DNA of 64,000 nt from the NCBI GenBank assembly GCA_038247945.1, contig JBBRUI010000001.1, forward strand, positions 650 through 64,649, read 5' to 3'. Below the pieces are notes generated by a model that did not search any database, was not told the DNA's origin, and saw only the letters and a program-made list of their open reading frames with translations. Source of the stretch: Bacteroidota bacterium (GTDB taxonomy: Bacteria > Bacteroidota > Ignavibacteria > UBA10030 > UBA6906). The translations under genes were made by a program, and so were the position numbers. This document shows positions 1,840 to 38,447 of this stretch, piece by piece. The first letter of the stretch is position 1; every line of letters begins with the position of its first letter.

Positions 1840-3162
1840 ATGGAATTCGGAAAACATCTTGGCAAAGGCATATGGGGTCTGGCAGACAAGATGCTGCCTG
1901 TTGCATATGGGATCGCCTACGTCGTTCTCGTTATACGGGTACTTCCCCCGGAAGAATTTGGAAGCTTTGTGCTGGTGCAGGAGATATTTTTGATTATTAC
2001 GGGACTGGCGACAGGGTTTGCTCTGCAGCCTTTGCTCAAGTTTGCGTCGGAAGATGCAGTGGAAATTCGGGGATATATCGCTATAGCATTGGTGTTGAAT
2101 ACCGGCTTTCTTCTTCTTTGTTCTCTGCTGATAGTTTTATTCAACGTGCCGTTAAGTCTACTTTTGAACTCTGCATCGCTGGGACCACTGCTCATGTATG
2201 TTCCGGCAATGTTGTTTGCTTCGTACCTGCGGAATTTTTGCCTGGTTTTGCTGCAAACCCGTTTTCGTGTTCAAGAAATTTTTTGGACAGACGTGTTCCA
2301 CTTTCTTGGAACGCCGTTGCTCATCTGGATTTGGTCGCGTATGCATATGTTCAATTCCGCAAATGATTTGCTTAATATAAATCTCATTTCTCTTTCATGC
2401 TCATCGTTGGTGGGATGGTTTTTCTCGCGGGATTTATTCTCGACCCGTTTCTCATTGGACAAACGTGAATTGAAGAAGATGTGGGATTACGGAAGCTATA
2501 GCGTGGGCAGTACTCTCAGCGCCCTGATGATCACAAAATCAGATACATTTATTCTCGCGGCGTTCGGAGGCCTGGTCGAGGTAGCAATATACAATTCGGT
2601 AAAAACATTTGTCCGGATTTATGATATGCTGACTCAGGTTGTGGGGATGTTTGTTTTCCCTGCGTCGTCACGCCTTGCTTCTCAAAATGACTTCACAAGA
2701 TTACGCGCCATGATTGAGAAGGCAATTCTCTTCGCAACGCTCATGATGATTCCCGTCTTCCTGGGTTTCTTAATTATGCCGTCGTTGTTAGTGGAAATAT
2801 ACGGTGGCAAATATGTTGGAGCTGCTCCCATCCTCCGGGTTTTTTCTATTGCGTCGTTGACAGTATCGGCGGCAGCAGTTGCAGGAAATGTACTAATGGG
2901 GTTAGGACATGCGCGGCTGGTGTTTTACCTTTTGCTTCAGCAGTTGGTTCTCACTATAGTAGGATTTTTATTTTTGATTCCGTGGCTCGGCGGTGTCGGA
3001 GCTGCGCTCACCTACGTTATCGTCAGTATTGTGGGGACAGCTATTTCACTTGCGTATCTCAACCGCTATGTTCCATTATCTCTGGGAGCGATCCTTGGCC
3101 GTACCAAAGACATCGTTGTGTTCATGAAATCCCGTCTTGCATTTCCGAATAGAACACCATGA
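1840..3162 (+). CDS. Polysaccharide flippase (Wzx-like, MOP superfamily)
   Basis: 440-aa, very hydrophobic protein with about 12 predicted TM segments. Its start overlaps the stop of the upstream GT2. Confidence 0.7.
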   Translation: MEFGKHLGKGIWGLADKMLPVAYGIAYVVLVIRVLPPEEFGSFVLVQEIFLIITGLATGFALQPLLKFASEDAVEIRGYIAIALVLNTGFLLLCSLLIVLFNVPLSLLLNSASLGPLLMYVPAMLFASYLRNFCLVLLQTRFRVQEIFWTDVFHFLGTPLLIWIWSRMHMFNSANDLLNINLISLSCSSLVGWFFSRDLFSTRFSLDKRELKKMWDYGSYSVGSTLSALMITKSDTFILAAFGGLVEVAIYNSVKTFVRIYDMLTQVVGMFVFPASSRLASQNDFTRLRAMIEKAILFATLMMIPVFLGFLIMPSLLVEIYGGKYVGAAPILRVFSIASLTVSAAAVAGNVLMGLGHARLVFYLLLQQLVLTIVGFLFLIPWLGGVGAALTYVIVSIVGTAISLAYLNRYVPLSLGAILGRTKDIVVFMKSRLAFPNRTP

Positions 3163-3169
3163 ACCAAAC

Positions 3170-4108
3170 ATGATCAAAACAATTCTGATAAAGGCAAAAA
3201 GACTTAAGAAGCGTTTCGATCAGATCAACGAGCTGGTTCAACGCGTTGAACAGTTACAGCAAGCAGTTGGTAGAATAGAAACGCGCTTGTCGCTCCCCGC
3301 AAGAGCGGATAGTAAAAATGTTCAAGACCATGAGTTCAAAGTGTACTCTCAATGGGGAGAGGACGGAATCATTCAATACCTGATTAATTCCATTGAGATT
3401 CCGAACAAGGTGTTTGTTGAGTTTGGGGTGCAGGATTATCGCGAATCGAATACGCGCTTTCTGTTGCAAAATAATAATTGGTCCGGTCTGGTCATGGACT
3501 CTTCTCCCGAGTTTATTCAGCGGATCAAGAACGAACCACTTTACTTTCGGCACAATCTGCGGGCGGAGTGTGCATTCATAGACCGCGACAATATTAACGA
3601 TCTCCTGGATCGCAACGGGATTCGCGGTGACATTGGACTTCTTTCTGTTGATGTTGACGGAATGGACTATTGGATCTGGGAAGCCATCACTGCGATCAAT
3701 CCGCGGATTGTTATCTGTGAATACGACACCTTTTTAGGTTCTGAGCGGGCGGTTGTGACGCCTTATGACAAATCGTTCGACCGTCTGAAGGCTCACTATT
3801 CATTTCTGTATGGGGGAAGCTCAATTGCAGCTATTACTCTACTCGCAAAAAGAAAAGGCTATTCACTCGTAGGATCAAACAGTAATGGCGTGAATGCGTT
3901 TTTCGTCAGAAACGATATTATTGGTTCCCTGCAAGTCTTGACTCCCCGAGAAGCTCATATGAAAGGCAAGTTCCGAAATTCCCACGACCGTGAAGGGAAC
4001 AGAACATTCTTGAGCGCGGAGGTGGGGATCAAACTGATCGGGGATATGCCGCTCTATGATGTGGAAAGAGATTTGACGATCAAAGTCCGCGACCTCAATC
4101 ATTCTTAA
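3170..4108 (+). CDS. FkbM-family methyltransferase-like protein (Methyltransf_21-like)
   Basis: Motif YSQWGEDGII...VFVEFGVQDYRESNTRFLL...WSGLVMDSSP resembles the SQxGED...FVDIGAxD...SNT...WxGxxIEP pattern of FkbM-family methyltransferases, with a degenerate glycine loop. The start was moved from 3137 to the ATG at 3170 to avoid overlap with the flippase. Confidence 0.4.
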   Translation: MIKTILIKAKRLKKRFDQINELVQRVEQLQQAVGRIETRLSLPARADSKNVQDHEFKVYSQWGEDGIIQYLINSIEIPNKVFVEFGVQDYRESNTRFLLQNNNWSGLVMDSSPEFIQRIKNEPLYFRHNLRAECAFIDRDNINDLLDRNGIRGDIGLLSVDVDGMDYWIWEAITAINPRIVICEYDTFLGSERAVVTPYDKSFDRLKAHYSFLYGGSSIAAITLLAKRKGYSLVGSNSNGVNAFFVRNDIIGSLQVLTPREAHMKGKFRNSHDREGNRTFLSAEVGIKLIGDMPLYDVERDLTIKVRDLNHS

Positions 4109-4120
4109 TCAAAAAAGTAC

Positions 4121-4570
4121 ATGGCTGAAACTCTTGGGTCGCTTTGCGACAAGCTCACGATCGTAAAGCTTAAACAATGGCATTCTGAAGAACCCGAGAG
4201 GCTGCGCAGTCTTAAGGTTCAAGAGCGCCAACTGCAGGATGAGATTGCGGAATATGTTGCCGCAGCAGTCTCAGGTCAAATTCCGGCAGAACGCTTAACG
4301 TTTGCTGCTAACAAAATCTATAAGAAAGAAGGAAACACCATAGCAAATGTAACGGGAACACTCGGCGAACTTGTTTCGCGACTCGCCGACGTAAATTGTC
4401 AATTGTGGCACGAGCAGGAAAAGGTTTATGCGTTTGAAACTATACCCGCGAATCAAAAGAACGATGTTGTAAAGCAACTTGCGATTCTGAATCTTGAGCG
4501 CACGCAATGCATCGATCAGATGGACAAAGCATTCCGCGACAGCATTGTTGCAGGGAGAGATAAATCATGA
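4121..4570 (+). CDS. Hypothetical protein, 149 aa (possible DUF4254-like glycan-cluster accessory protein)
   Basis: Clean ORF in the operon, helical and charged. The family is not confidently recognised. Confidence 0.35.
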   Translation: MAETLGSLCDKLTIVKLKQWHSEEPERLRSLKVQERQLQDEIAEYVAAAVSGQIPAERLTFAANKIYKKEGNTIANVTGTLGELVSRLADVNCQLWHEQEKVYAFETIPANQKNDVVKQLAILNLERTQCIDQMDKAFRDSIVAGRDKS

Positions 4571-4604
4571 AACGACAGGCAGTACAGTTGCCAAAGGAAA
4601 TATT

Positions 4605-5867
4605 ATGCATTTAGTTCATCGACAAAGTTGCCGCGTTTGCGGCTCCAAAGCTCTTACCCGAGTGATCGATTTGGGCGAGCAGTACCTTCAAGGATCGTTT
4701 GTAAAACCCGGCAAGGAACAACCACCGACCAGAAAGATCCCAACGGTGCTTGTTCGATGTAATCCGCTTCTCGACGAGAACGCGTGCGGCTTGCTTCAAA
4801 TGGAGAACACGGTGCCTCCGGAAGTTCTGTACTCAGCGTATTGGTACAGATCGGGCACCAACAACACAATGCGTTCGCATTTACATGAAATCGTCGATGC
4901 CGCAACAGCACATATTCAAAAACCCATTGCGCGAGTCCTCGACATCGGTTGTAACGATGGAACTCTCTTGCGGTTTTATCCCGAAGCATATATAAAGTTT
5001 GGCATCGACCCCTCGGACGTTGCGCAAGAAATACAGGGTGACATTAGAGTTATTCAGGATATTTTTCCTTCGAATGAACTTACTCATGTCGCCCATGATA
5101 TGCCGTTCGATATCATTACTTCTATAGCGATGTTCTACGATCTGGAAAACCCTGTCGCTTTTACCCAAAGCATCAAGGAAATACTGGCACCTCAGGGAGT
5201 GTGGATTTTCGAGATGTCCTACATGCCATCGATGATCAAAATGAATTCGTACGATACGATCTGCCACGAACATCTCGAGTACTACAGTCTGGCTGTGCTT
5301 GAAAAGATAATGCAGCGGGCCGGAATGAAGATTATTAACGCAGAGCTTAATTCAATCAATGGCGGCAGTATCCGGTGCTACGCTACGCATAACGACAATT
5401 TCATGAACAAGAATGAAAAGTACGCACAGAGCATTAACGAATTGCGGGCAGCCGAATTCGACATGGAGCTGGACACGGATAAGCCGTACAAAAATTTTCA
5501 GGATCACATCAATATCCATAAAGAAGAGTTAACGGCACTTTTGCGCCGGCTGAAAAAAGAAGGCAAGCATATTCATGTGTACGGAGCCTCGACAAAAGGA
5601 AATACAATTCTGCAATGGTGCGGCATTGATAACAGGATTGTGGATGCCGCGGCGGACAGAAATCCGGACAAGCATGGGGCATATACACTGGGCACTGAGA
5701 TCCCGATCATAAGTGAAGAGCAATCGCGCCAAATGAAACCGGATTACTATCTCGTGTTGCCCTGGCATTTCAAAGATGAGTTCATCGAGCGAGAAAAAGC
5801 GATACTGCAGGCAGGGATTAAAATGATTTTCCCCTTGCCCGAGATTGAGATAGTTGGTCTGCCCTGA
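4605..5867 (+). CDS. NDP-hexose C-methyltransferase (TylC3/TcaB9-like)
   Basis: N-terminal 4-Cys putative zinc-binding region (CRVCGS...C...C), a class I SAM-binding domain (LDIGCNDG) and a C-methyltransferase C-terminal domain. The ATG at 4605 follows the RBS AAAGGA; the track start at 4494 is an upstream extension. Confidence 0.75.
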   Translation: MHLVHRQSCRVCGSKALTRVIDLGEQYLQGSFVKPGKEQPPTRKIPTVLVRCNPLLDENACGLLQMENTVPPEVLYSAYWYRSGTNNTMRSHLHEIVDAATAHIQKPIARVLDIGCNDGTLLRFYPEAYIKFGIDPSDVAQEIQGDIRVIQDIFPSNELTHVAHDMPFDIITSIAMFYDLENPVAFTQSIKEILAPQGVWIFEMSYMPSMIKMNSYDTICHEHLEYYSLAVLEKIMQRAGMKIINAELNSINGGSIRCYATHNDNFMNKNEKYAQSINELRAAEFDMELDTDKPYKNFQDHINIHKEELTALLRRLKKEGKHIHVYGASTKGNTILQWCGIDNRIVDAAADRNPDKHGAYTLGTEIPIISEEQSRQMKPDYYLVLPWHFKDEFIEREKAILQAGIKMIFPLPEIEIVGLP

Positions 5868-24748: not shown

Positions 24749-25360
24749 TCAACGGTTGCTATTTTGGTCAGATTTGAGAGCAGCTTTGAGCCAGTTTCCT
24801 TGAGTTAGCCTAACTCCAGCAGCGTGAAGCCGGGAGTGCCCGTTCAGTTTTCTTCTCTTACCTCGACAGTCTGTGTAGGGTTTTTGTCGGAGATAGGCAA
24901 CGAGGAGATTAACATACACGACCGCAGTGTGTCGATGCTGAAACGCCTCAATGGTCTTGAACCGACGTTCGAGTTGTTTGTTGACGTTCTCCACCAAGTT
25001 GGTCGTCCTCGGCAATCCCTGGACACGATGGTGTTGCATGAGGCGGTTCCAGTGACGTTTGAGGAACGCAATTGCTTTCCGATGCGCTGTGCGAGGAGGT
25101 CGTCGCGTTCGCTGAAGGCGTTGGAACAGTTCGCTCGCTCTTGCTTCGTCCTTGGCACACATCTTCTCGTCTACCAGAAGTACACCATCCCATGATGGCT
25201 TCAATTCCTTGCTCATCTCCAGCGCTGTCTTGCATCGTCTCCCAAGTTCTTCAACCATCTTCTGCAACGAGGTGGGCGAAATCTTTCTTCCGCTCCGTTG
25301 ATAGACATTCTTGGCAATCACACGATAACTCTCCCGTCCCTCAACGTGTCGACGCACCAC
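24749..25360 (-). mobile_element. DDE transposase fragment (IS256/Mutator-like C-terminal motif)
   Basis: RTTNLVENVNKQLERRFKTIEAFQHRHTAVVYVNLLVAYL matches the C-terminal TTN-x-E-x-N...F motif of IS256-family transposases. At 203 aa it is too short for a full transposase and no inverted repeats were identified. Confidence 0.45.
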
Positions 25361-27755: not shown

Positions 27756-28021
27756 GAGTTTTCTCCTTGATTCGGTTTGGATTTTTAGATTGTGCGGTGG
27801 ATGAATGTAGAAAAGTTGAAGGGGGTAAGCAAGGTCTCTCCATCCTCACCCTGAGCGCAGTCCCGCTTGTTTTTTAAAGCGCTGAGGTCGTAGGTCGAAT
27901 CTCCCGATTCGATTTTTGACTCCCATTACTTTGCCCCTGGCAGATTGCCATTCTCGCGGCGTTTCGCTAACTTGCTTGCAGAAACCGCGCAAGAGGTTGC
28001 ACAAACGAATAAAAATGACAT

Positions 28022-28349
28022 GAAAACATCATCTCACCGACAGCGCGGAACCCGCGGCAACAGACAACATGCATACCTCCGCACAATCCGCAGCCATTGG
28101 GACACACTGAGGAAACGCTACAAGCTCAAGGAAATCGGAATCTTCGGGTCCGTCGTTCATGGTAAGGAAACGAAGAAGAGCGACATTGATATCCTGGTGG
28201 AGTACGAAGAACTGCCGGACCTTCTGGAGTTCATCAACCTTGAGAACTATCTGGAAGAGATACTGAAAAGGAAGGTGGACCTTGTCGAGAAACATGGGGT
28301 GCGTCCGGAACTGCGGGACCGCATATTCAACGAGGTGGTCTATTTGTAA
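28022..28349 (+). CDS. Minimal nucleotidyltransferase (MNT-type), orphan
   Basis: IGIFGSVVHGKETKKSDIDILVEY is the GS-x9-D-x-D nucleotidyltransferase motif. The start was taken at MKTSSH (109 aa). No HepT/HEPN partner is adjacent. Confidence 0.65.
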
Positions 28350-28394
28350 ATTGTAACCTGGTCGCAACAGAACGACCAATGAAGGAACATACAA

Positions 28395-28430
28395 CCCCCG
28401 GTCAGATGCTGGCCGGGGGTTTGTGGTTTT
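28395..28430 (+). terminator. Rho-independent terminator
   Basis: cccccgg-tcagatgctgg-ccggggg followed by tttgtggtttt, directly after the MNT gene. Confidence 0.5.
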
Positions 28431-28559
28431 GGGGGCATTAAGTGCCGAGGATTTTTTGACGGTAGCCGATGTCATTACATTATTGAAAATATAATGTTAT
28501 ATATTCTTGCATATATAGAAATTATTGTTTTCATTATAACGGCAGAATAAAGGAATCAA

Positions 28560-28793
28560 ATGAGCGTGAAATCCACCCGGAGAGAGCGGTTCGAAAGTGT
28601 TGCCGCGAGACGTACCCAGAAAATTCTGGATTTGCTGGATATCCTCGGGAACTGTTCAAATAAGAACAACTACGAATATACGGATACAGATGTCCGCAAA
28701 ATGTTCTCAGCAATCAGAGACAAAACGAAGAGTACCGAGGCGGCCTTCGGAAATGCAATTAACCGGTCAACAAAAAATAAATTCACATTTTAA
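28560..28793 (+). CDS. Small hypothetical protein (77 aa), first gene of the AT-rich island operon
   Basis: RBS AAGGA upstream. Its stop TAA overlaps the ATG of the next gene (TAATG). Confidence 0.4.
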   Translation: MSVKSTRRERFESVAARRTQKILDLLDILGNCSNKNNYEYTDTDVRKMFSAIRDKTKSTEAAFGNAINRSTKNKFTF

Positions 28794-30793
28794 TGAAACC
28801 ATATTGGCATTATATAAAATTTCCAAGTAACGCTGGTTTGAGCAGAAAACCACCGAGATTTAAGGACTTAGGGGCTCACAATATTAAGACATTTGTTCGA
28901 GAGCTAATCCAGAACTGCCTTGATGCAAGACATAAAGATTTGCTCCCTGTCGAAATCAAAATTGTCATAAAAGAGTGGGGCAAAACAGAGCTCAATAACT
29001 TTCTCGGACTTCTTGGAGATGACCACGTAGAGCTTCTGAAAAAATCCTATGATGAAGCTTTACCGGAAGTTAAAGTTCACATGCAAGCTGGTTTCGATTT
29101 ACTCGGCGGGGAACATGAGAAAACCTTCTGTCTTATCGTTGAGGAAAGGAATTGCGTCGGCTTAACTGGCTCTGTTATTGGTTCAAATGACAAGTCACAC
29201 TTCAATGCGTTAGTTCGCCAAACCGATAACAACGAAAATAAAAGAGAACTATCAAACAGCGGCGGAACATGGGGAAAAGGTAGTTCTGTTTTTACGTACA
29301 TTTCAAAAATGTGGACTTGGTTCTGTTACACAAAATTGTCTGAGCCATGGAATGGCCCCACTGACAACATTGTTCACCAAAAAAGATTTATGGGCCGCTG
29401 TATGATTGCACCATTCTTTGACCAAGAAAACAACAACAGTTATTGGGGTGATGGTTGGTTTTGCAAGCCTGGTACCGATGCTTTTCCGTACATAAATGAC
29501 GATGCTGATGCAATGGCTCGAATATTCGGGATGAACTTGAGGAGTGATCCGGGTTGCACCTTTTTGATTCCCTTCTTGTCTCCCACGATTGAGAGTATGG
29601 ACAATTTGTCAATTGAGGCTCCAACCAAAGAAAATGTTTTTGCTGAATTTAGAACACAGATTCTGCAAAACTGGTTTATTCCGATTTTCAATGGCCAGCT
29701 AAGAGTCGTTGTTGAAAATGAGGATCAAGTTATTTCGATTGACAAGGAATATTTGATTAAGAATGTCCCTGAATTAAAATTCAAAGTGGCGATTCTCAAC
29801 TGGTATGAGCAGGGTTGTCCACCCGATAAAGCGTTTATTAAGGAAACCATTGAAGTTGACGTTCCGGGACTACAGCGAAGTTTGATCAACAAGTTTAATC
29901 GGTTTGCTGTTGTAAGAGAAAGGATAAAGCTTGATTTAATCATCAGAGTTTTATCGGAAGACGAGGACTATGAGAAAAACTGGGGAACTCAAAATACAGT
30001 TGCTTTAGCAAGAGGGAAAGGGATGGTTGTAACGCATTCTGATGAGGGAACGAAATTCTTAGCGAATTCGACGGATATACGAACTGAAAGTATCTTGTTT
30101 TCTGGTTTGCTTTCGGCTAGTGAAACCAATTTAGAAAAGAGGAAACATTTGGATTTGTTTTTAGCTTACTCTGAAAATCCTGCTCACAACAAATGGTGTT
30201 CTTATCCTGCTGATTACGCAATTTGTTTTCTTGAATTATTTGAAGGGAAAAGACCGGCTCCGGAAAAAACCATCAAAGATATTTACGATTCGATCTACCG
30301 GGCATTCAAAAAACTGTTTGACGAAGAAAAAATACAGCCACAGAATAAAGACATTTGCTCAATTTTTAAAAAACTTGCCCAACTCAAGACCTCAGGTAGC
30401 GAAGGAACCGGAAAAGCACTGTATTACATGAGAACCCCTGACGGAGTTACCAATCCGGCCATTACAGAGGGAAGATACAATTTTGAATTCAGGTTTATTC
30501 ATTCAGAGAATGTAACGGAGAATGTTCGCGTGGACTTTCGAAGTCTGATTGAATCCTTGGAAGGTGAAACGAATAAAGATTTTAATAATCTTGGGATATC
30601 GGACTTTGAAAACATTGAACTATTTGACAAGTTTGGAACCAAATATGGTGAAGGTAAGAACCCATCAATTCTGTTAAAACCCGGACATCCTTTAACTGTT
30701 AGAATTAGGACCTGCAACATTGACGGCAATCCCCGCTTCAAAAATCTGAAACCGATTATCAAAACTTCTGGTAGAATTGATATAGTATCATGA
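28793..30793 (+). CDS. GHKL/MORC-like ATPase-domain protein (666 aa), unknown function
   Basis: N-box RELIQNCLDA resembles the Bergerat-fold motif I (ELVxNAxDA). IVEERNCVGLTG is G1-like and NSGGTWGKGSSVF is G2-like (GxxGxGxxSxF). The remaining ~450 aa are unrecognised. Confidence 0.45.
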   Translation: MKPYWHYIKFPSNAGLSRKPPRFKDLGAHNIKTFVRELIQNCLDARHKDLLPVEIKIVIKEWGKTELNNFLGLLGDDHVELLKKSYDEALPEVKVHMQAGFDLLGGEHEKTFCLIVEERNCVGLTGSVIGSNDKSHFNALVRQTDNNENKRELSNSGGTWGKGSSVFTYISKMWTWFCYTKLSEPWNGPTDNIVHQKRFMGRCMIAPFFDQENNNSYWGDGWFCKPGTDAFPYINDDADAMARIFGMNLRSDPGCTFLIPFLSPTIESMDNLSIEAPTKENVFAEFRTQILQNWFIPIFNGQLRVVVENEDQVISIDKEYLIKNVPELKFKVAILNWYEQGCPPDKAFIKETIEVDVPGLQRSLINKFNRFAVVRERIKLDLIIRVLSEDEDYEKNWGTQNTVALARGKGMVVTHSDEGTKFLANSTDIRTESILFSGLLSASETNLEKRKHLDLFLAYSENPAHNKWCSYPADYAICFLELFEGKRPAPEKTIKDIYDSIYRAFKKLFDEEKIQPQNKDICSIFKKLAQLKTSGSEGTGKALYYMRTPDGVTNPAITEGRYNFEFRFIHSENVTENVRVDFRSLIESLEGETNKDFNNLGISDFENIELFDKFGTKYGEGKNPSILLKPGHPLTVRIRTCNIDGNPRFKNLKPIIKTSGRIDIVS

Positions 30794-31779
30794 GCGAAAA
30801 AATAATAGTAATAGAGCCATACAGAACCGGCGCCAACCTAATCTCTCTCAAGGGAAGAGTTTCCTTGGATGGAATTAAAGATGAAATAACGATTCCCGAC
30901 AGGAATCATCTGAATCTGTTCAATTATTCTTTGGATTCGGGAACGATACTTATCCCTCGGTCACATAATACCCTTACGCTAGATCTTACTACGCATTGGG
31001 AAAGTGCCAAAGGAATAGGCGATTTGAAATTCCTTATTGACGAATCAGAAAAGCCCGAAGAAACACTTTCACTTATTGTTGAGGTTTGGTGTAAAACCAC
31101 CCGGTGGTGCAGCGAGCAAAAAAGTATTCCCTTAAATGAAATCGGAACGAAACGTCAGTTCTCATTTAATATTCCGATTAACGAGGTAAAGGAGCTGCTT
31201 ACAGTGTCTGCTTTTGTTATAAGGGAAAAAGGAAACAGCAAAACATTTCTGCGAAAGGCCAGCACGAAGTATTCAATTTTGTCAGAAAGTGAAGAAATCA
31301 CAATTCAGATTGATGAACGAAAGGAGATCGGGGGTGCCTATCTCCCAATTGAACCGGAAAACATTGGTGATCGGATATTTGAGATAAGAGGTCTGGACAA
31401 TGAAACGGACATTCCGCGAATAAAATTTTCAGAAGATTTCAAAGAATACTTTACAAGAGATGATTTGCAGACTGTGAATACAACATTTATCATATCGATG
31501 TTCTATTTTCTGGATTCCTATTTGAAGTGGTTGATTTTTGTAAGCCGCAATGACCCCGCCGATAAAACATACAAAAGCGTGCTGGATTTATTTTCGCGAT
31601 ACTGTGATATAACCAAGTCGCAGCTCATAGAAATCGTTCAGATGGAAAAACATTCTCCCGAGCAAACAAAAGCATTTTTGAAACTGTCACAAGATCTGTT
31701 TAATGGTTTACAAACGAATGTAAATTTCAAATACAAGAAAGAGCTGTTGAAGATCATAAAAGCCGAAGCCGCAAAATGA
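30790..31779 (+). CDS. Hypothetical protein (329 aa), operon partner
   Basis: Start overlaps the upstream stop (ATGA). No recognisable motif. AT-rich. Confidence 0.4.
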   Translation: MSEKIIVIEPYRTGANLISLKGRVSLDGIKDEITIPDRNHLNLFNYSLDSGTILIPRSHNTLTLDLTTHWESAKGIGDLKFLIDESEKPEETLSLIVEVWCKTTRWCSEQKSIPLNEIGTKRQFSFNIPINEVKELLTVSAFVIREKGNSKTFLRKASTKYSILSESEEITIQIDERKEIGGAYLPIEPENIGDRIFEIRGLDNETDIPRIKFSEDFKEYFTRDDLQTVNTTFIISMFYFLDSYLKWLIFVSRNDPADKTYKSVLDLFSRYCDITKSQLIEIVQMEKHSPEQTKAFLKLSQDLFNGLQTNVNFKYKKELLKIIKAEAAK

Positions 31780-32567
31780 AAAACTACAAAAACAAAGTAG
31801 AGCACTTTATTAATCTTCTAGAGCCCGGAGAAGGCAAGAATGGGGAGCTATTCAATCTGTTCAACATTTACTCCCAAGACAGATTCAACGGATATCTTGC
31901 TAGTAAAATTGAATTTGAGATCACGGGTGACGTGACAGATGCCGAAGAAAAGATGTTGCAAAAAATAAAAAGCGAAATAAAACAATTACAGAAGCAATTT
32001 TCAGATGCAAAAGCAGAAAGACTGGAATTTGATTTAGCAAAAATTTTCCATTCGAATTTGAGGGAAATAGGTTTTGGCAGATTTCACGTCGATGATATAG
32101 GAATGTGGAGATGGATGTCAATGAATTATTTCAAAGAAGAAACATTTTGGCGTAGGGGGCTATCTGATCTCGATAAGAAAGAAATTCCAAAGGCGGCCAA
32201 AGCGACTTTTGAACATTGCATAGGAAAAAGAAGCAGAGACATCTTCCCAAGACGTTATTTTGTTATCGGCCAAAGACTATTCGACACAAACGAGAAGTAT
32301 GCTTTGATTGAAAAGTTAGCAGAAAAGTCAAGGGCAGCAAGAAGCGGCGGGTTCGGTAATCTTATCGCAAACATCGTTGAAACAAAACTGATTAGTCCGA
32401 ATGATTATGTTTCAAAAGTTATTTCTAAAATAATGTTCGCCGATAGAGGTATTGGCGACGATAAGGAAGTGAAAAATGCATTTGTTAGATACAATGCTTA
32501 CAGAAAGAGATTGCTTAATAATGCCTCTGAGAATGTATTCAGGAATGAAATTTGCCTTATGGAATGA
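31776..32567 (+). CDS. Hypothetical protein (263 aa), operon partner
   Basis: Start overlaps the upstream stop (ATGA). No recognisable motif. Confidence 0.4.
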   Translation: MKNYKNKVEHFINLLEPGEGKNGELFNLFNIYSQDRFNGYLASKIEFEITGDVTDAEEKMLQKIKSEIKQLQKQFSDAKAERLEFDLAKIFHSNLREIGFGRFHVDDIGMWRWMSMNYFKEETFWRRGLSDLDKKEIPKAAKATFEHCIGKRSRDIFPRRYFVIGQRLFDTNEKYALIEKLAEKSRAARSGGFGNLIANIVETKLISPNDYVSKVISKIMFADRGIGDDKEVKNAFVRYNAYRKRLLNNASENVFRNEICLME

Positions 32568-33792
32568 GCTGTTTCTTGATTGCTTTAGCAATCGCATTCG
32601 CCATCAACGGAGGAACCGCATTTCCGATTTGACGGAACATAGCCGTTCGTGAGCCCTCAAAATAAAAATCGTCAGGAAATGATTGGAGCCGTGCTGCTTC
32701 TCTCACTGAAATCGAGCGACATTGCGCCTTGCTCGGGTGTATGTAGTAATGCCCGTCTTTCGCTATGTGTGCAACTACTGTGTGGGAAATCCCTCTTCCA
32801 TCAACAACTTTGAAGCGGTCAAGAAACGCCTTTGTGTTTTTTTGTGTCTGCAATTCTTTTGGAATGTCCGTGTATTTAATCCGCTTTTTTGAATTTTTCC
32901 AGCTGTCAATAGCAAGTTTGTAAATTTTCAGATCGTTGGGGTTGTGTGGCCGACAAATATGTTGCGTATAGGAATCAATTCCATTTCTTAATCCAAATGT
33001 TTCAAGGTATCCATTTGTTTTGTTTGTGTATTTGCCTTTCGTTTTTACTTGCCCCGGCGAAAGACGAGAGAGGTCCGAGAAAATGCTTGCGGTCTTGAAA
33101 CTATGTTTGGAGATCTCGGGGTCGGGATAGGAGAACATCATATCTCTTTTCCATCCAACGATGATTACCCGTTTGCGGTTTTGTAGTACCCCATAATCTT
33201 TTGCATTCAGAATCTTATCCTCGGTTTTATAACCAAGTCTTTCAAAGTAATGTTTCAATCCCTGATAGTACTGACCATCATTTGCACTCAGCAAACCGGG
33301 AACATTCTCAAATACAAAAAGCTTCGGGTTAAACTCTTTCAGAAACTTTCCATACTGCACATACAATTTCACCCGATCGTCTTTTTCCCAATCAATAGCG
33401 TGTCTGCCTATGAGTGAATATCCCTGACAAGGTGGTCCGCCAATTATTAAGTCGAGTTCTTTCTTGTCCTGCTTATTCAGAATTGAATGAACGCTGTCAA
33501 AAATATCTCTCAATGAATCGTCAGAAATCTTTGCATTGATTACAGAATCAGAATGCTCCTTCGGCAAATGGCTGTACAAAATTTCTCTGGAAATATTTCC
33601 AGTAATGTAATCATAGTAAACATCGAGCCTGTTGTTCTCTTTCAGATAGTGAAAAGCAACTCGTGTTTTAATGGTCAAGCAAGCATCTGGATCCATTTCA
33701 ATGTGAGCAATGGGATTCATATCATTGCGCTTGAATCCCTCTGAAAGAGCCGATGTCCCGGCGAAAAGATCTATATAATTGAGTTGGTTCAC
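32557..33792 (-). CDS. dcm: DNA cytosine-5 methyltransferase
   Basis: Motif I DLFAGTSAL, motif IV GGPPCQGYS and an ENV motif FVFENVPGL. Confidence 0.85.
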   Translation of the reverse strand: MNQLNYIDLFAGTSALSEGFKRNDMNPIAHIEMDPDACLTIKTRVAFHYLKENNRLDVYYDYITGNISREILYSHLPKEHSDSVINAKISDDSLRDIFDSVHSILNKQDKKELDLIIGGPPCQGYSLIGRHAIDWEKDDRVKLYVQYGKFLKEFNPKLFVFENVPGLLSANDGQYYQGLKHYFERLGYKTEDKILNAKDYGVLQNRKRVIIVGWKRDMMFSYPDPEISKHSFKTASIFSDLSRLSPGQVKTKGKYTNKTNGYLETFGLRNGIDSYTQHICRPHNPNDLKIYKLAIDSWKNSKKRIKYTDIPKELQTQKNTKAFLDRFKVVDGRGISHTVVAHIAKDGHYYIHPSKAQCRSISVREAARLQSFPDDFYFEGSRTAMFRQIGNAVPPLMANAIAKAIKKQLIP

Positions 33793-34226
33793 TTAGTTTG
33801 TTTCTGCGCTGTTTTGCTCAATCGCCGTCCAACTTTGTTAAGGGTTTTCTCTCTTCTTTTCGGTTTCAGTTCGCATTCAAATATAACTATTACTTTCCAG
33901 CCTTCCTTACGAATTTTCAAAGAGTTTATCAAGTCTCTTTGTGAATTACCGCCAATCTTCTTTAGCCACCATTTAGTGCGGGTTTTAGGCGGAACAAAAT
34001 ATTTGCAACCTTCATGTCCATGCCAGTAGCAACCGTGAACGAAAATTACTGTCCTCAGCTTTGGAAAAACCAGGTCGGGTTTCCCGGGAAGGCGTTTGTC
34101 GTGAAGTCTGTAACGGAAGCCGCTGGTAAAAAGAAATTTTCTAACCAACATCTCAGGCTTGGTATCTTTGCCTTTGATTTGGCTCATGTTGAAGCTTCTG
34201 GTCCGTTTGTCGTGAACGTCTGCCAT
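33789..34226 (-). CDS. vsr: Very-short-patch repair endonuclease
   Basis: FVHGCYWHGHEGCKY and a ~145-aa length are typical of Vsr. It overlaps dcm by 4 nt. Confidence 0.85.
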   Translation of the reverse strand: MADVHDKRTRSFNMSQIKGKDTKPEMLVRKFLFTSGFRYRLHDKRLPGKPDLVFPKLRTVIFVHGCYWHGHEGCKYFVPPKTRTKWWLKKIGGNSQRDLINSLKIRKEGWKVIVIFECELKPKRREKTLNKVGRRLSKTAQKQTK

Positions 34227-36962: not shown

Positions 36963-37223
36963 ATGAAACCACTCGGGAACATCGGCATTGGAGAAATCGT
37001 CCGCTTTCATCGGACGAGGGCAGGGTTAACGCAGAAAGCTCTTGCTGACCTCGCTGGGGTAGGCAAGACTGTGGTGTTCGACATTGAGAAGAATAAACAA
37101 TCCGTGCAATGGGATTCGCTCAACAAAATTTTCAATGCATTGAACATCACGATTGTGTTTGAGAGTCCGCTCATGAAAGAACTGAATGAAGAGTTAAAAA
37201 AGGCCGGCGATGAAAAGAGCTAA
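36963..37223 (+). CDS. hipB: HTH (XRE-family) antitoxin, HipB-like
   Basis: GLTQKALADLAGVGKTVVFDIEKNKQ is a helix-turn-helix. First gene of three overlapping ORFs. Confidence 0.7.
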   Translation: MKPLGNIGIGEIVRFHRTRAGLTQKALADLAGVGKTVVFDIEKNKQSVQWDSLNKIFNALNITIVFESPLMKELNEELKKAGDEKS

Positions 37224-37521
37224 TGTCTCCATGCATGGCGTTCCGGCAGGAACGCTTGAGGAACACGAGCAGGGAAAGAAGTACGTCTTCCGTTATCGAG
37301 AAGAATACTCGGGCCCTGCGATCTCATTGACGATGCCTGTCGCGCAGAGGGAGTTTGCATTCGAAATCTTTCCTCCTTTTTTTGACGGTGTTCTTCCTGA
37401 AGGAGTCCAACTCGAGGGTCTCCTCCGGCAAAGGAAAATAGACCGGAGTGATTTTTTTTCGCAACTCACAGCAGTCGGTCAGGACCTCGTCGGAGCAATC
37501 ACTGTCGAAGAGGCGGAATGA
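37210..37521 (+). CDS. HipA N-terminal subdomain protein (HipS-like)
   Basis: 103 aa; SMHGVPAGTLEE...FRY...FFDGVLPEG matches HipA N-terminal subdomain 1. It overlaps both neighbours. Confidence 0.6.
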   Translation: MKRANVSMHGVPAGTLEEHEQGKKYVFRYREEYSGPAISLTMPVAQREFAFEIFPPFFDGVLPEGVQLEGLLRQRKIDRSDFFSQLTAVGQDLVGAITVEEAE

Positions 37522-38447
37522 AACGTTGTCCGATTACATATGACGAAATCGGGAAGGGCGAGTATTCGGACCGCGGACTTCGCCTTCTCTCACGGCAATT
37601 GAAGGGATTGCAACCGCTTCCGTACACAGCGGAAGAGCAACGCCTCGAAGCTGTACGAAGAGCGGCAAAGATGTCGATCCAGGGAGTGCAGGCGAAACTG
37701 AGCGCCCGGCTGAACGTGAAGGAGGAATGCTTCGACGTAGTGGATACTGGCGGCCGGTTTATTTTGAAACCGCAAAGCAGCATGTACCCGGAGCTTCCAC
37801 AGAATGAAGATCTTACGATGCGACTTGCAGCCGAAGCCGGAATAGAAGTGCCGCTGCACGGGATGGTATACTCGAAGGATGGGTCGCTGACGTATTTCAT
37901 CAATCGTTTTGATCGTGTTGCCAGAGGCGGCAAACTCGCTGTTGAAGACTTTGCCCAGGTGCAGGGAAAGACGAGAGACACGAAGTATCAGTCGAGTATG
38001 GAGCAAGTTGCGGCAACGATTGAAACGTACTGCACGTTTCCGGCAGTGGAGAAGGTGAAACTGTTCAGGCTGACGCTGTTCAACTTTCTTGCGGGGAATG
38101 AAGATATGCATCTGAAGAATTTCTCGCTCATCAATCGCGACGGAAAGGTCGAGCTTTCACCTGCATACGACCTTCTCAACACAACGATTGCCGTACGGGG
38201 TGCAACGGAAGAACTTGCGTTGCCATTGCACGGCAAGAAGAATAGTCTGAAACGAAGCGACGTTGTTGACTATTTTGCACTCGAACGCCTTGCGCTAAAG
38301 CCGAAGATAGTTGACAGTGTTCTGGAGGGGTTTGTCAAAGCTGCAGGTCGATGGCAAGAGCTGATCGGGATCTCTTTTCTTTCTGATCCGATGAAGCAAT
38401 CATATCTCTCGCTGCTGGATGAGAGAAAAAAAAGACTCGAACTATAG
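37518..38447 (+). CDS. HipA-family Ser/Thr kinase toxin, C-terminal kinase portion (HipT-like)
   Basis: LAGNEDMHLKNFSLINRDGKVELSPAYDLLNT is the HipA catalytic-loop motif. At 309 aa it lacks the N-terminal subdomain carried by the upstream ORF. Confidence 0.7.
   Translation: MKRCPITYDEIGKGEYSDRGLRLLSRQLKGLQPLPYTAEEQRLEAVRRAAKMSIQGVQAKLSARLNVKEECFDVVDTGGRFILKPQSSMYPELPQNEDLTMRLAAEAGIEVPLHGMVYSKDGSLTYFINRFDRVARGGKLAVEDFAQVQGKTRDTKYQSSMEQVAATIETYCTFPAVEKVKLFRLTLFNFLAGNEDMHLKNFSLINRDGKVELSPAYDLLNTTIAVRGATEELALPLHGKKNSLKRSDVVDYFALERLALKPKIVDSVLEGFVKAAGRWQELIGISFLSDPMKQSYLSLLDERKKRLEL

Follow-up and report, generated by a model that had tools for sequence, protein, structure and literature searches.

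What does a 666-residue protein do that matches no family in the domain databases and is encoded close to a cytosine DNA methyltransferase? The question is raised by a gene, here called A, in a 64,000-nucleotide (nt) stretch of contig JBBRUI010000001.1 from a Bacteroidota bacterium (assembly GCA_038247945.1, positions 650 to 64,649 of the forward strand; this whole stretch is referred to as the window). An earlier reading of the letters alone, the original prediction, had described A as a protein with a Bergerat-fold (GHKL) N-terminus, identified by three motifs, and a novel C-terminal two-thirds. The open reading frame (ORF) at 28793..30793 (+) does encode 666 amino acids (aa), exactly as claimed. 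Using predicted structure, residue conservation and a comparison of related loci, we find that A appears to be a cryptic ATPase of the GHKL+transducer type, and that the S-A-B-C cassette of which it is part probably acts as a restriction-like anti-phage system.

To assign a fold to A, an AlphaFold2 model was built on the family alignment (predicted local distance difference test score, pLDDT, 83.9; predicted template modelling score, pTM, 0.74) and compared with the PDB using Foldseek. Nine matches were obtained at E<=1e-3 and all were GHKL+transducer ATPases, among them Topo VI-B (9o8p_B, E 2e-10; 1z5a_B, E 2e-7), SMCHD1 (6mw7, E 6e-7), GyrB (3zkb, E 1e-6) and MutL (7p8v, E 5e-6). The MutL match had a template modelling (TM) score of 0.57 over the whole 331-residue N-terminal fragment, which suggests that both domains of this two-domain fragment align with the model. 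When a viral structure library was searched, the named matches among the top six were type II topoisomerases and an HtpG-domain protein, and across both libraries the strong named matches were GHKL+transducer ATPases only (probability 0.99-1.00). The predicted Bergerat-fold N-terminus is thus recovered by the model and by matches in both the PDB and the viral library.

At the level of sequence, the family is cryptic. No match to window protein A was found in Pfam, NCBIfam or PHROGs, and phmmer and two profile searches of A against the PDB sequences returned nothing. We also aligned a superfamily of 46 sequences, reaching ~17-24% identity; none of the 46 matches any HATPase_c-type Pfam model, even at E<=1, so the comparison with HATPase_c_3 that had been proposed as a check came back negative. 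Likewise, the superfamily profile was not recognised by hhalign against a Pfam-annotated HATPase_c_3 protein (hhalign probabilities <=2.8%). The likeness of motif I to that of MutL, also part of the original prediction, was partly borne out: against the E. coli MutL N-terminal fragment, hhalign aligned motif I alone, on MutL 24-38 with the conserved residues falling on E29/N33/D36, but at a probability of only 2.8% and for a single sequence. The negative HATPase_c result therefore means that the A family is visible by structure only, not that the fold is refuted. We consider the assignment of A as a GHKL ATPase, which draws on predicted structure and conservation and not on sequence profiles, to be right.

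The motifs and domains of A, as placed by the alignment and the model, are:

28793..29602 (+), residues 1-270, predicted Bergerat-fold ATPase domain, delimited by model secondary structure, pLDDT and fold matches
28898..28927 (+), motif I (N box), RELIQNCLDA, aa 36-45, from alignment and model
29138..29170 (+), motif II region (G1-like), VEERNCVGLTG, aa 116-126, from alignment and model
29255..29293 (+), motif III (G2 box), NSGGTWGKGSSVF, aa 155-167, from alignment and model
29552..29560 (+), candidate motif IV, G254-C255-T256, at the start of strand 254-262
29603..30172 (+), residues 271-460, transducer-like middle region, from secondary-structure order, multi-domain fold matches and conservation
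30173..30196 (+), E461-x3-H465-x2-W468 motif (ENPAHNKW), directly after the last helix of the middle domain
30413..30790 (+), residues 541-666, predicted C-terminal beta-sandwich, clade-specific

In the model, the ATPase domain has a strand near its N-terminus (aa 5-10) and the helix of motif I (aa 31-44), with an inserted helical segment at aa 64-104, besides the elements carrying the remaining motifs. E37, N41 and D44 of motif I lie on helix 31-44. The candidate motif II lies at the end of strand 111-119 and has the pattern (D/E)xNxxGLxG instead of the canonical DxGxG (superfamily consensus IEDxNTxGLxG), position 118 being Glu in the close clade and Asp in the superfamily consensus. Residues 144-161, the only low-confidence stretch of the domain, precede the motif III glycines and are probably the ATP lid, placing motif III at the end of a flexible lid. 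Across the 46 sequences, E37, N41, D44, G123, G126, G158, G161, G163, G254, R407, G438, E461, H465 and W468 are invariant, and the motif residues are likewise invariant in a 48-sequence alignment. The ordered triple E...N..D / [DE].N..G..G / G..G.G occurred in 1/20,000 shuffles of protein A and was absent from all other of the 49 long stop-to-stop segments in the window. The three motifs are therefore where the original prediction placed them and, by both the shuffles and their invariance, are not chance. A fourth GHKL motif (G254-T) is conserved beyond these three, the residue after G254 being Thr in at least 90% of relatives and Cys in the window protein. With all catalytic-type residues conserved in its GHKL ATP-binding domain, A is predicted to bind and hydrolyse ATP.

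The region following the ATPase domain had been described as novel and as lacking an S5-type module. It is indeed unrecognised in databases, and ~461-666 remains without assignment. However, conservation extends to ~465, and residues 271-460 look like a transducer module, judging from secondary-structure order and the two-domain fold matches. In the model, residues 376-460 follow the beta-beta-beta-alpha-beta-alpha order of an S5-type transducer, with the invariant Arg407 (nt 30011-30013) in the hairpin ALARGKGM, so that the module said to be missing is likely present. Arg407 is a candidate phosphate-sensing basic residue; the phosphate sensor in MutL and GyrB is Lys, and the candidate in A is Arg. 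The E461-x3-H465-x2-W468 motif is invariant in 46/46 superfamily members (consensus AEPPxHDxW) and lies outside the four canonical GHKL motifs. Beyond it, the model has a disordered linker (residues 512-540) and the beta-sandwich, for which Foldseek gave weak generic matches (E ~1e-2). Distant relatives cannot be aligned past ~465, and the clade-specific portion of A is only ~470-666, the linker and beta-sandwich.

The family is large. We found 75 homologues of window A in a 5.8-billion-protein collection, all ~650-670 aa and mostly metagenomic, none with a Pfam domain or informative name. An exhaustive profile search of 1.84 billion representatives gave 3371 proteins at E<=1e-3, of which 1066 reached E<=1e-10. 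About ten were close full-length relatives; the rest, of 590-750 aa, matched profile positions ~30-465, and the conserved unit of A is therefore far longer than the ATPase domain. Since the family is invisible to Pfam and NCBIfam despite 3371 cluster representatives, annotation and defence-finder pipelines call it "hypothetical". In some superfamily members, DNA-binding elements are fused to the N-terminus (HTH_3 in P0098; sigma-70 region 4 and HNH-associated repeats in P0140). Such fusions suggest that, in those lineages, A is guided to DNA or acts as its own regulator.

We next consider the genes with which A travels. In the window these are:

28560..28793 (+), S, 77 aa
28793..30793 (+), A, 666 aa, PADLOC PDC-M33A-like
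30790..31779 (+), B, 329 aa, its start overlapping the A stop by 4 nt
31776..32567 (+), C, 263 aa, overlapping B by 4 nt
32557..33792 (-), dcm, 411 aa, C5 cytosine DNA methyltransferase, convergent with C and overlapping it by 11 nt
33789..34226 (-), vsr, 145 aa, very-short-patch repair endonuclease, overlapping dcm by 4 nt on its upstream side
28393..28421 (+), terminator-like hairpin with a 13-bp stem and 9 G-C pairs, closing the upstream gene

S and A meet in a TAATG overlap, and the A/B, B/C and vsr/dcm overlaps are of 4 nt each. S-A-B-C are thus four translationally coupled genes, with A second, that converge on the vsr-dcm pair. A profile of G+C content across the window was 0.35-0.43 over ~28.4-34.25 kb and 0.50-0.56 in the flanks, dropping from ~0.50 to ~0.40 at the hairpin, which is the left edge of the low-GC island; vsr is the right edge. 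Because they share this island and its left edge is a strong terminator, S-A-B-C and vsr-dcm look like one acquired unit. The dcm product matched Pfam DNA_methylase (1e-61), TIGR00675 (3e-55) and the PADLOC DrmMII-type model (1e-162), and the vsr product matched Pfam Vsr (8e-35) and, above the curated cutoff, TIGR00632 (3e-39). No restriction gene beyond vsr and dcm was found among the six island genes by Pfam and family scans. Of the two components of a classical type II restriction-modification (R-M) system, the island has the methylase; family scans of S, A, B and C and fold searches with A and B turned up no endonuclease. Upstream of S, the AT-rich 138 bp at 28422-28559 contain TATA-rich near-palindromic stretches (for example ...aaaatataatgttatatattcttgcatatataga...), which by their sequence could be an operator or promoter of the operon. 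On the other side of the hairpin, the gene that ends at the strong terminator bordering the island (27945-28349, +) encodes a lone MNT-type nucleotidyltransferase (NTP_transf_2 1e-15; Polbeta 1e-14) with no adjacent HEPN partner.

Using the six window proteins as queries, we searched loci obtained through the homologues and by scanning 185,579 species genomes. The genome scan contributed 14 loci, of which all except one were from Bacteroidota metagenome-assembled genomes (Chitinophagales, Cyclobacteriaceae, Sphingobacteriaceae). The arrangement of S-A-B-C with a methylase is seen again in one gammaproteobacterial and about 15 Bacteroidota loci. Conservation of S-A-B-C extends to loci in which A is only 33% identical, and the order A > B > C on one strand holds in the window and its relatives. 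Among the 15 non-redundant close-clade loci, 14 have a C5-methylase match (the exception ends 150 bp past C) and 11 have Vsr, which is also present in L021, L026 and L027. In more distant contexts, Dcm is adjacent in five of seven that are informative (L021, L024, L026, L027, L028). Its placement varies between upstream co-directional and downstream convergent, both being found in the sample of Bacteroidota and a Gammaproteobacterium. Arrangements at the distant loci are:

Gammaproteobacterial locus, Dcm-Vsr-S-A-B'-C' on one strand, with A at 24% identity
L024 (100-7126), a tandem duplication, with Dcm-S-A(632)-B(337)-C(242, DUF6339) and, directly after it, a further A paralogue (649 aa) and the beginning of another gene
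L026, A, a split B and C, then Dcm and Vsr
L027, an A fused to a helix-turn-helix (HTH) domain (2890-4974), B and C, beside Dcm-HNH-Vsr
L028, Dcm beside A-B-C
L006 and L025, bare A-B-C adjoining GmrSD, an Eco57I-type enzyme, an MzaA-like gene and DndB

Each bare cassette is followed by a large protein with sigma-70-like regions (L006, 10643-13348; L025, 7262-9436), which may belong to a separate Mza-type system or be linked in function to the cassette; the 901-aa protein in L006 matches PADLOC MzaA (4e-35), and the 724-aa protein in L025 has Sigma70 and RNA_pol_A_CTD Pfam matches. At L001 (2051-14772), the cassette lies between two other methylase-containing systems, one comprising a 901-aa HATPase_c_3 protein, two small genes and Dcm, and the other an MvaI/BcnI-type endonuclease, Dcm and Vsr. 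This one defence island therefore holds two unrelated GHKL-type ATPases.

What the partners of A contribute is less apparent from their sequences. S is basic (pI 10.0) and an optional accessory which, where present, is always immediately upstream of A: homologues occupy this position in 12/15 of the close-clade loci (L016 and L018 lack S) and, among distant loci, in L021, L023 and L024, whereas L006, L025 and L026-L028 are without it. It has no family match in Pfam, PADLOC, NCBIfam or PHROGs. A role for S as an R-M controller (C) protein was considered and dropped, given that it has no HTH match and is optional. For B, which is fast-evolving across relatives, the model (pLDDT 80.6) places an immunoglobulin/fibronectin type III (Ig/FnIII)-like beta-sandwich at aa 18-175, then a small beta region, then a helical bundle at aa 215-328; its matches are confined to generic sandwiches (RbmA, antibody and cytokine-receptor domains, UNC119). 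No family, PADLOC or PDB-sequence match and no enzyme fold was found for it. We also dropped three specific roles for B. A Topo VI-A/Toprim-like partner of the Topo VI-B-like A would not be a beta-sandwich with a helical bundle, an SRA/PUA-type reader of methyl-cytosine has no support in the fold matches, and a specificity subunit co-varying with the methylase is not expected where B is 81% identical and Dcm 31% (L008).

C has a basic core (pI 9.6), and of its residues H92, D107, W111, R126 and Y175 alone are broadly conserved; S and the C core are the basic components of the cassette, A and B being acidic to neutral. On transitive sequence links through L003 and L020, C is identified as a divergent DUF6339/PDC-M33C homologue: the C proteins of these loci reach canonical DUF6339/PDC-M33C proteins at E 1e-5 to 1e-7, and the C of L006 matches DUF6339 at 2e-23 and PDC-M33C at 3e-20. 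Direct hmmscan of window C was negative for both. C members have no recurrent Pfam family, profiles of B and C find nothing in the PDB, and the superfamily alignments of B and C contain no catalytic-looking invariant set.

The closest listed relative of the cassette is PDC-M33. The PDC systems, 145 in all, are candidates proposed on the grounds that they lie inside BREX, DISARM and type I R-M loci (10.1101/2024.01.29.577857), and PDC-M33 is a three-family cassette (CAS_00129, 98 instances) without functional annotation (Payne et al. preprint 10.1101/2024.01.29.577857). PADLOC PDC-M33A matches window A at E 1.1e-12 over residues 29-177 only, the first ~150 residues, and most intermediate relatives of A at 1e-18 to 1e-41 over 260-490 residues. 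In the PADLOC scan (E<=0.1), window B and C had no match, and no tested B matched any model, even that of L006. Both cassettes have the order A (~620-720 aa) > B (~300-350 aa) > C (DUF6339, ~210-280 aa); the window clade differs as a divergent branch that adds S and is fixed to dcm and vsr. A is thus not an orphan but a divergent, methylase-fixed branch of a large unannotated candidate defence family already listed as PDC-M33. We found no characterisation of the A-B-C family in the literature on DUF6339, PDC-M33 and GHKL/Vsr defence.

Better described systems offer partial parallels. MORC and paraMORC1-5 are GHKL+S5 ATPases of R-M operons for which a DNA-looping role was proposed (Iyer, Abhiman & Aravind 2008, PMC2292703). 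They are often associated with cytosine methylases and Vsr-superfamily nucleases, for which the analogy to MutL-Vsr was drawn, and are usually paired with superfamily II (SFII) helicases and restriction endonuclease (RE)-fold or HNH (or HKD) nucleases (PMC2292703). Like them, A combines a GHKL domain whose ATP-binding motifs are intact with what is probably an S5/transducer-like module containing a conserved basic residue, lies in a mobile-island operon with a cytosine methylase and Vsr (dcm and vsr adjoin A in the window), and would be expected to serve as an ATP-driven switch or looping engine and not as the nuclease itself. Unlike them, A is not seen by Pfam HATPase_c or HATPase_c_3, carries the extra invariant E-x3-H-x2-W motif and a predicted beta-sandwich C-terminal domain, and has S, B and C as partners instead of an SFII helicase or an RE-fold or HNH nuclease. 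The MORC S5 signature GhXhhpXXRhl was found in 0/46 A-family members when rendered as a regular expression and searched without a positive control. VcSduA of Vibrio cholerae (paraMORC3, Shedu type I-D) is a validated GHKL-nuclease defence protein whose activity is lost upon mutation of the motif I Glu (PMC12137116). It shares with A an N-terminal GHKL ATPase with motifs I-IV (II being a candidate in A), a clamp-like middle domain (predicted for A) and an anti-phage context. However, VcSduA carries its nuclease, a DUF4263 PD-(D/E)xK domain, within a single polypeptide, and its GHKL domain is recognised by HATPase_c, whereas A lacks a nuclease domain, has partner genes and is methylase-linked.

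Topo VI-B, GyrB, MutL and SMCHD1 resemble A in the order of GHKL domain, transducer (probable in A) and C-terminal extension, in a flexible lid ending in GxxGxG and in a basic residue from the second domain (a candidate in A), but sequence identity is 8-11% and the motif II spacing of A is different. A also lacks both a Toprim or Topo VI-A partner and the C-terminal endonuclease/dimerisation domain of MutL. BREX and DISARM are, like the cassette, multi-gene systems with an ATPase, a methyltransferase as the likely self-marker and exclusion in the absence of an obvious restriction endonuclease. Only the type of methylase is shared, however (the best PADLOC model for the window Dcm is DrmMII-type); the cassette is much smaller, and its Dcm stands alone with Vsr.

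In light of these comparisons, we put roughly even weight on the reading that S-A-B-C and vsr-dcm form a methylation-gated, R-M-like, horizontally acquired defence island with A as the ATPase engine. By analogy to other GHL ATPases, A would dimerise through its N-terminal domains upon ATP binding and act as a nucleotide-controlled clamp or switch on DNA. B may be an adaptor or recognition subunit, and the basic C (DUF6339), together with S where present, may contact nucleic acid. Dcm would mark host DNA as self, Vsr would repair the T:G mismatches arising from deamination of 5-methylcytosine (m5C), and the A-B-C complex would act on DNA without the Dcm mark. Candidates for the step that damages or blocks foreign DNA are C, the E461/H465/W468 site of A or a recruited nuclease. 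A role in defence is suggested because bare A-B-C cassettes adjoin GmrSD, an Eco57I-type enzyme, an MzaA-like gene and DndB, because the PDC-M33 candidate is found embedded in BREX, DISARM and type I R-M loci and because, as a precedent, R-M operons that include Dcm and Vsr are known to encode GHKL+S5 ATPases (PMC2292703). An ATPase role in defence is consistent with the requirement for the motif I Glu in a GHKL-nuclease protein (PMC12137116).

Several observations weigh against this picture. The fold of A is supported by no sequence-profile method, its motif II spacing is non-canonical, and Thr255 of motif IV is Cys in the window protein. No nuclease, helicase or other effector fold was found in A or B, C is without a recognisable catalytic signature, and B matches Ig/FnIII-type sandwiches only. 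PDC-M33 is itself a candidate defence system by inference. The two distant cassettes L006 and L025 have no nearby methylase, and in L001 and L027 Dcm and Vsr flank a conventional nuclease (MvaI/BcnI-type and HNH, respectively); the methylase of these two loci could be part of an ordinary type II system merely neighbouring A-B-C. Finally, the identity of Dcm to the window enzyme (24-76%) is uncoupled from that of A, B and C, as is apparent for L008 (A 77%, B 81%, Dcm 31%) and L017 (A 49%, Dcm 54%), which would be unexpected if A-B-C had to match the sequence specificity of the methylase.

A possibility to which we give limited credence is that S-A-B-C and Dcm provide a new class of methylation-gated immunity without a dedicated endonuclease. 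In such a scheme, a GHKL clamp and a DUF6339 DNA-binding subunit would recognise unmethylated DNA and inactivate it, either by entrapping or looping it in an ATP-driven manner or by means of a new catalytic site, which may be the E461/H465/W468 motif or DUF6339. A portable module that plugs into unrelated methylases would explain both why Dcm is freely exchanged and why A-B-C is found bare inside BREX, DISARM and type I R-M loci.

A different account, which we regard as unlikely, is that A-B-C is a self-contained defence or abortive-infection module which does not read methylation, and which either guards methylases, as PrrC does its type I R-M system, or co-accumulates with them in mobile defence islands. 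In the guard version, A-B-C would fire when a phage disables the R-M system or the methylase. The definition of PDC-M33 by its embedding in BREX, DISARM and type I R-M loci, the bare cassettes lacking Dcm in defence islands, the uncoupling of methylase identity from A/B/C identity and the L001 and L027 methylases with nucleases of their own would all be expected from such a module. It does not readily explain why the adjacent methylase in the sampled loci is a C5 enzyme and never an N6 or N4 enzyme, with A falling from 77% to 24% identity across two gene orders and two phyla, nor why the six window genes form one compositional island with no other restriction gene. In addition, to act as a guard, A-B-C would have to make specific protein contacts with methylases that differ greatly from one another.

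Another candidate for the nuclease is Vsr, with A recruiting it and stimulating its nicking as MutL does in E. coli very-short-patch repair. The presence of Vsr in 11/15 close-clade loci and in L021, L026 and L027, the functional pairing of MutL with Vsr, the recurrence of Vsr-superfamily nucleases in GHKL-containing R-M operons (PMC2292703) and the fact that fold searches of A and B detect no other nuclease all point in this direction. Nevertheless, we find this quite improbable, given that the window Vsr is a canonical one above the TIGR00632 cutoff whose presence is fully explained by the adjacent m5C methylase, that the L006, L025 and L028 cassettes do without it and that Vsr, which cuts only T:G mismatches in its site, would attack intact phage DNA poorly.

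The link between MutL and Vsr also permits a reading outside defence, in which the cassette is a repair or maintenance accessory of Dcm-Vsr, a private MutL/MutS-like helper that limits m5C-driven mutagenesis. MutL stimulates Vsr in E. coli (as cited in PMC2292703), the cassette co-occurs tightly with Dcm and Vsr, and no nuclease was found in A-B-C. We hold this to be very improbable, since the cassettes reside in low-GC mobile islands with a patchy distribution, are tandemly duplicated in L024 and occur bare and Vsr-less among GmrSD, Mza, Dnd and type IIG genes, and since the fast evolution of B and the clade-specific C-terminal domain of A are typical of conflict systems and not of repair factors. 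That the motifs of A are coincidental and its N-terminus is not GHKL is scarcely credible: the empty Pfam, NCBIfam and PDB sequence and profile searches, 0/46 HATPase_c matches and hhalign values of <=2.8% would fit, but two independent structure libraries give GHKL+transducer ATPases as the only strong named matches, the motif residues do not vary at 17-24% identity and fall on those secondary-structure elements where they would be expected, and the triple arises in 1/20,000 shuffles.

GHKL ATPases in R-M operons have been predicted since 2008, and the validated type is nuclease-fused (Shedu/paraMORC3) only. Recognition of the GHKL+transducer architecture in A therefore offers a first mechanistic handle for the PDC-M33 candidate and a context for DUF6339. 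If it is true that the cassette restricts DNA without a conventional nuclease, this would bear on the still debated mechanism by which methylase-linked systems such as BREX exclude phage DNA.

Two further features were noted near the island. About 3 kb away, a 203-aa ORF (24749-25360, -) matches only the C-terminal part of an IS66-family transposase model (positions 211-278 of 284). From this partial match, it is probably a transposase remnant, which would fit a mobile-DNA hotspot. Farther along, 2.7 kb from the island, three overlapping genes at 36963-38447 (+) form a tripartite HipB/HipS/HipT-like toxin-antitoxin module:

36963-37223 (+), HTH_3 protein, 86 aa
37210-37521 (+), HipA N-terminal-domain protein, 103 aa (Couple_hipA 5e-24)
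37518-38447 (+), HipA_C kinase, 309 aa (2e-47)

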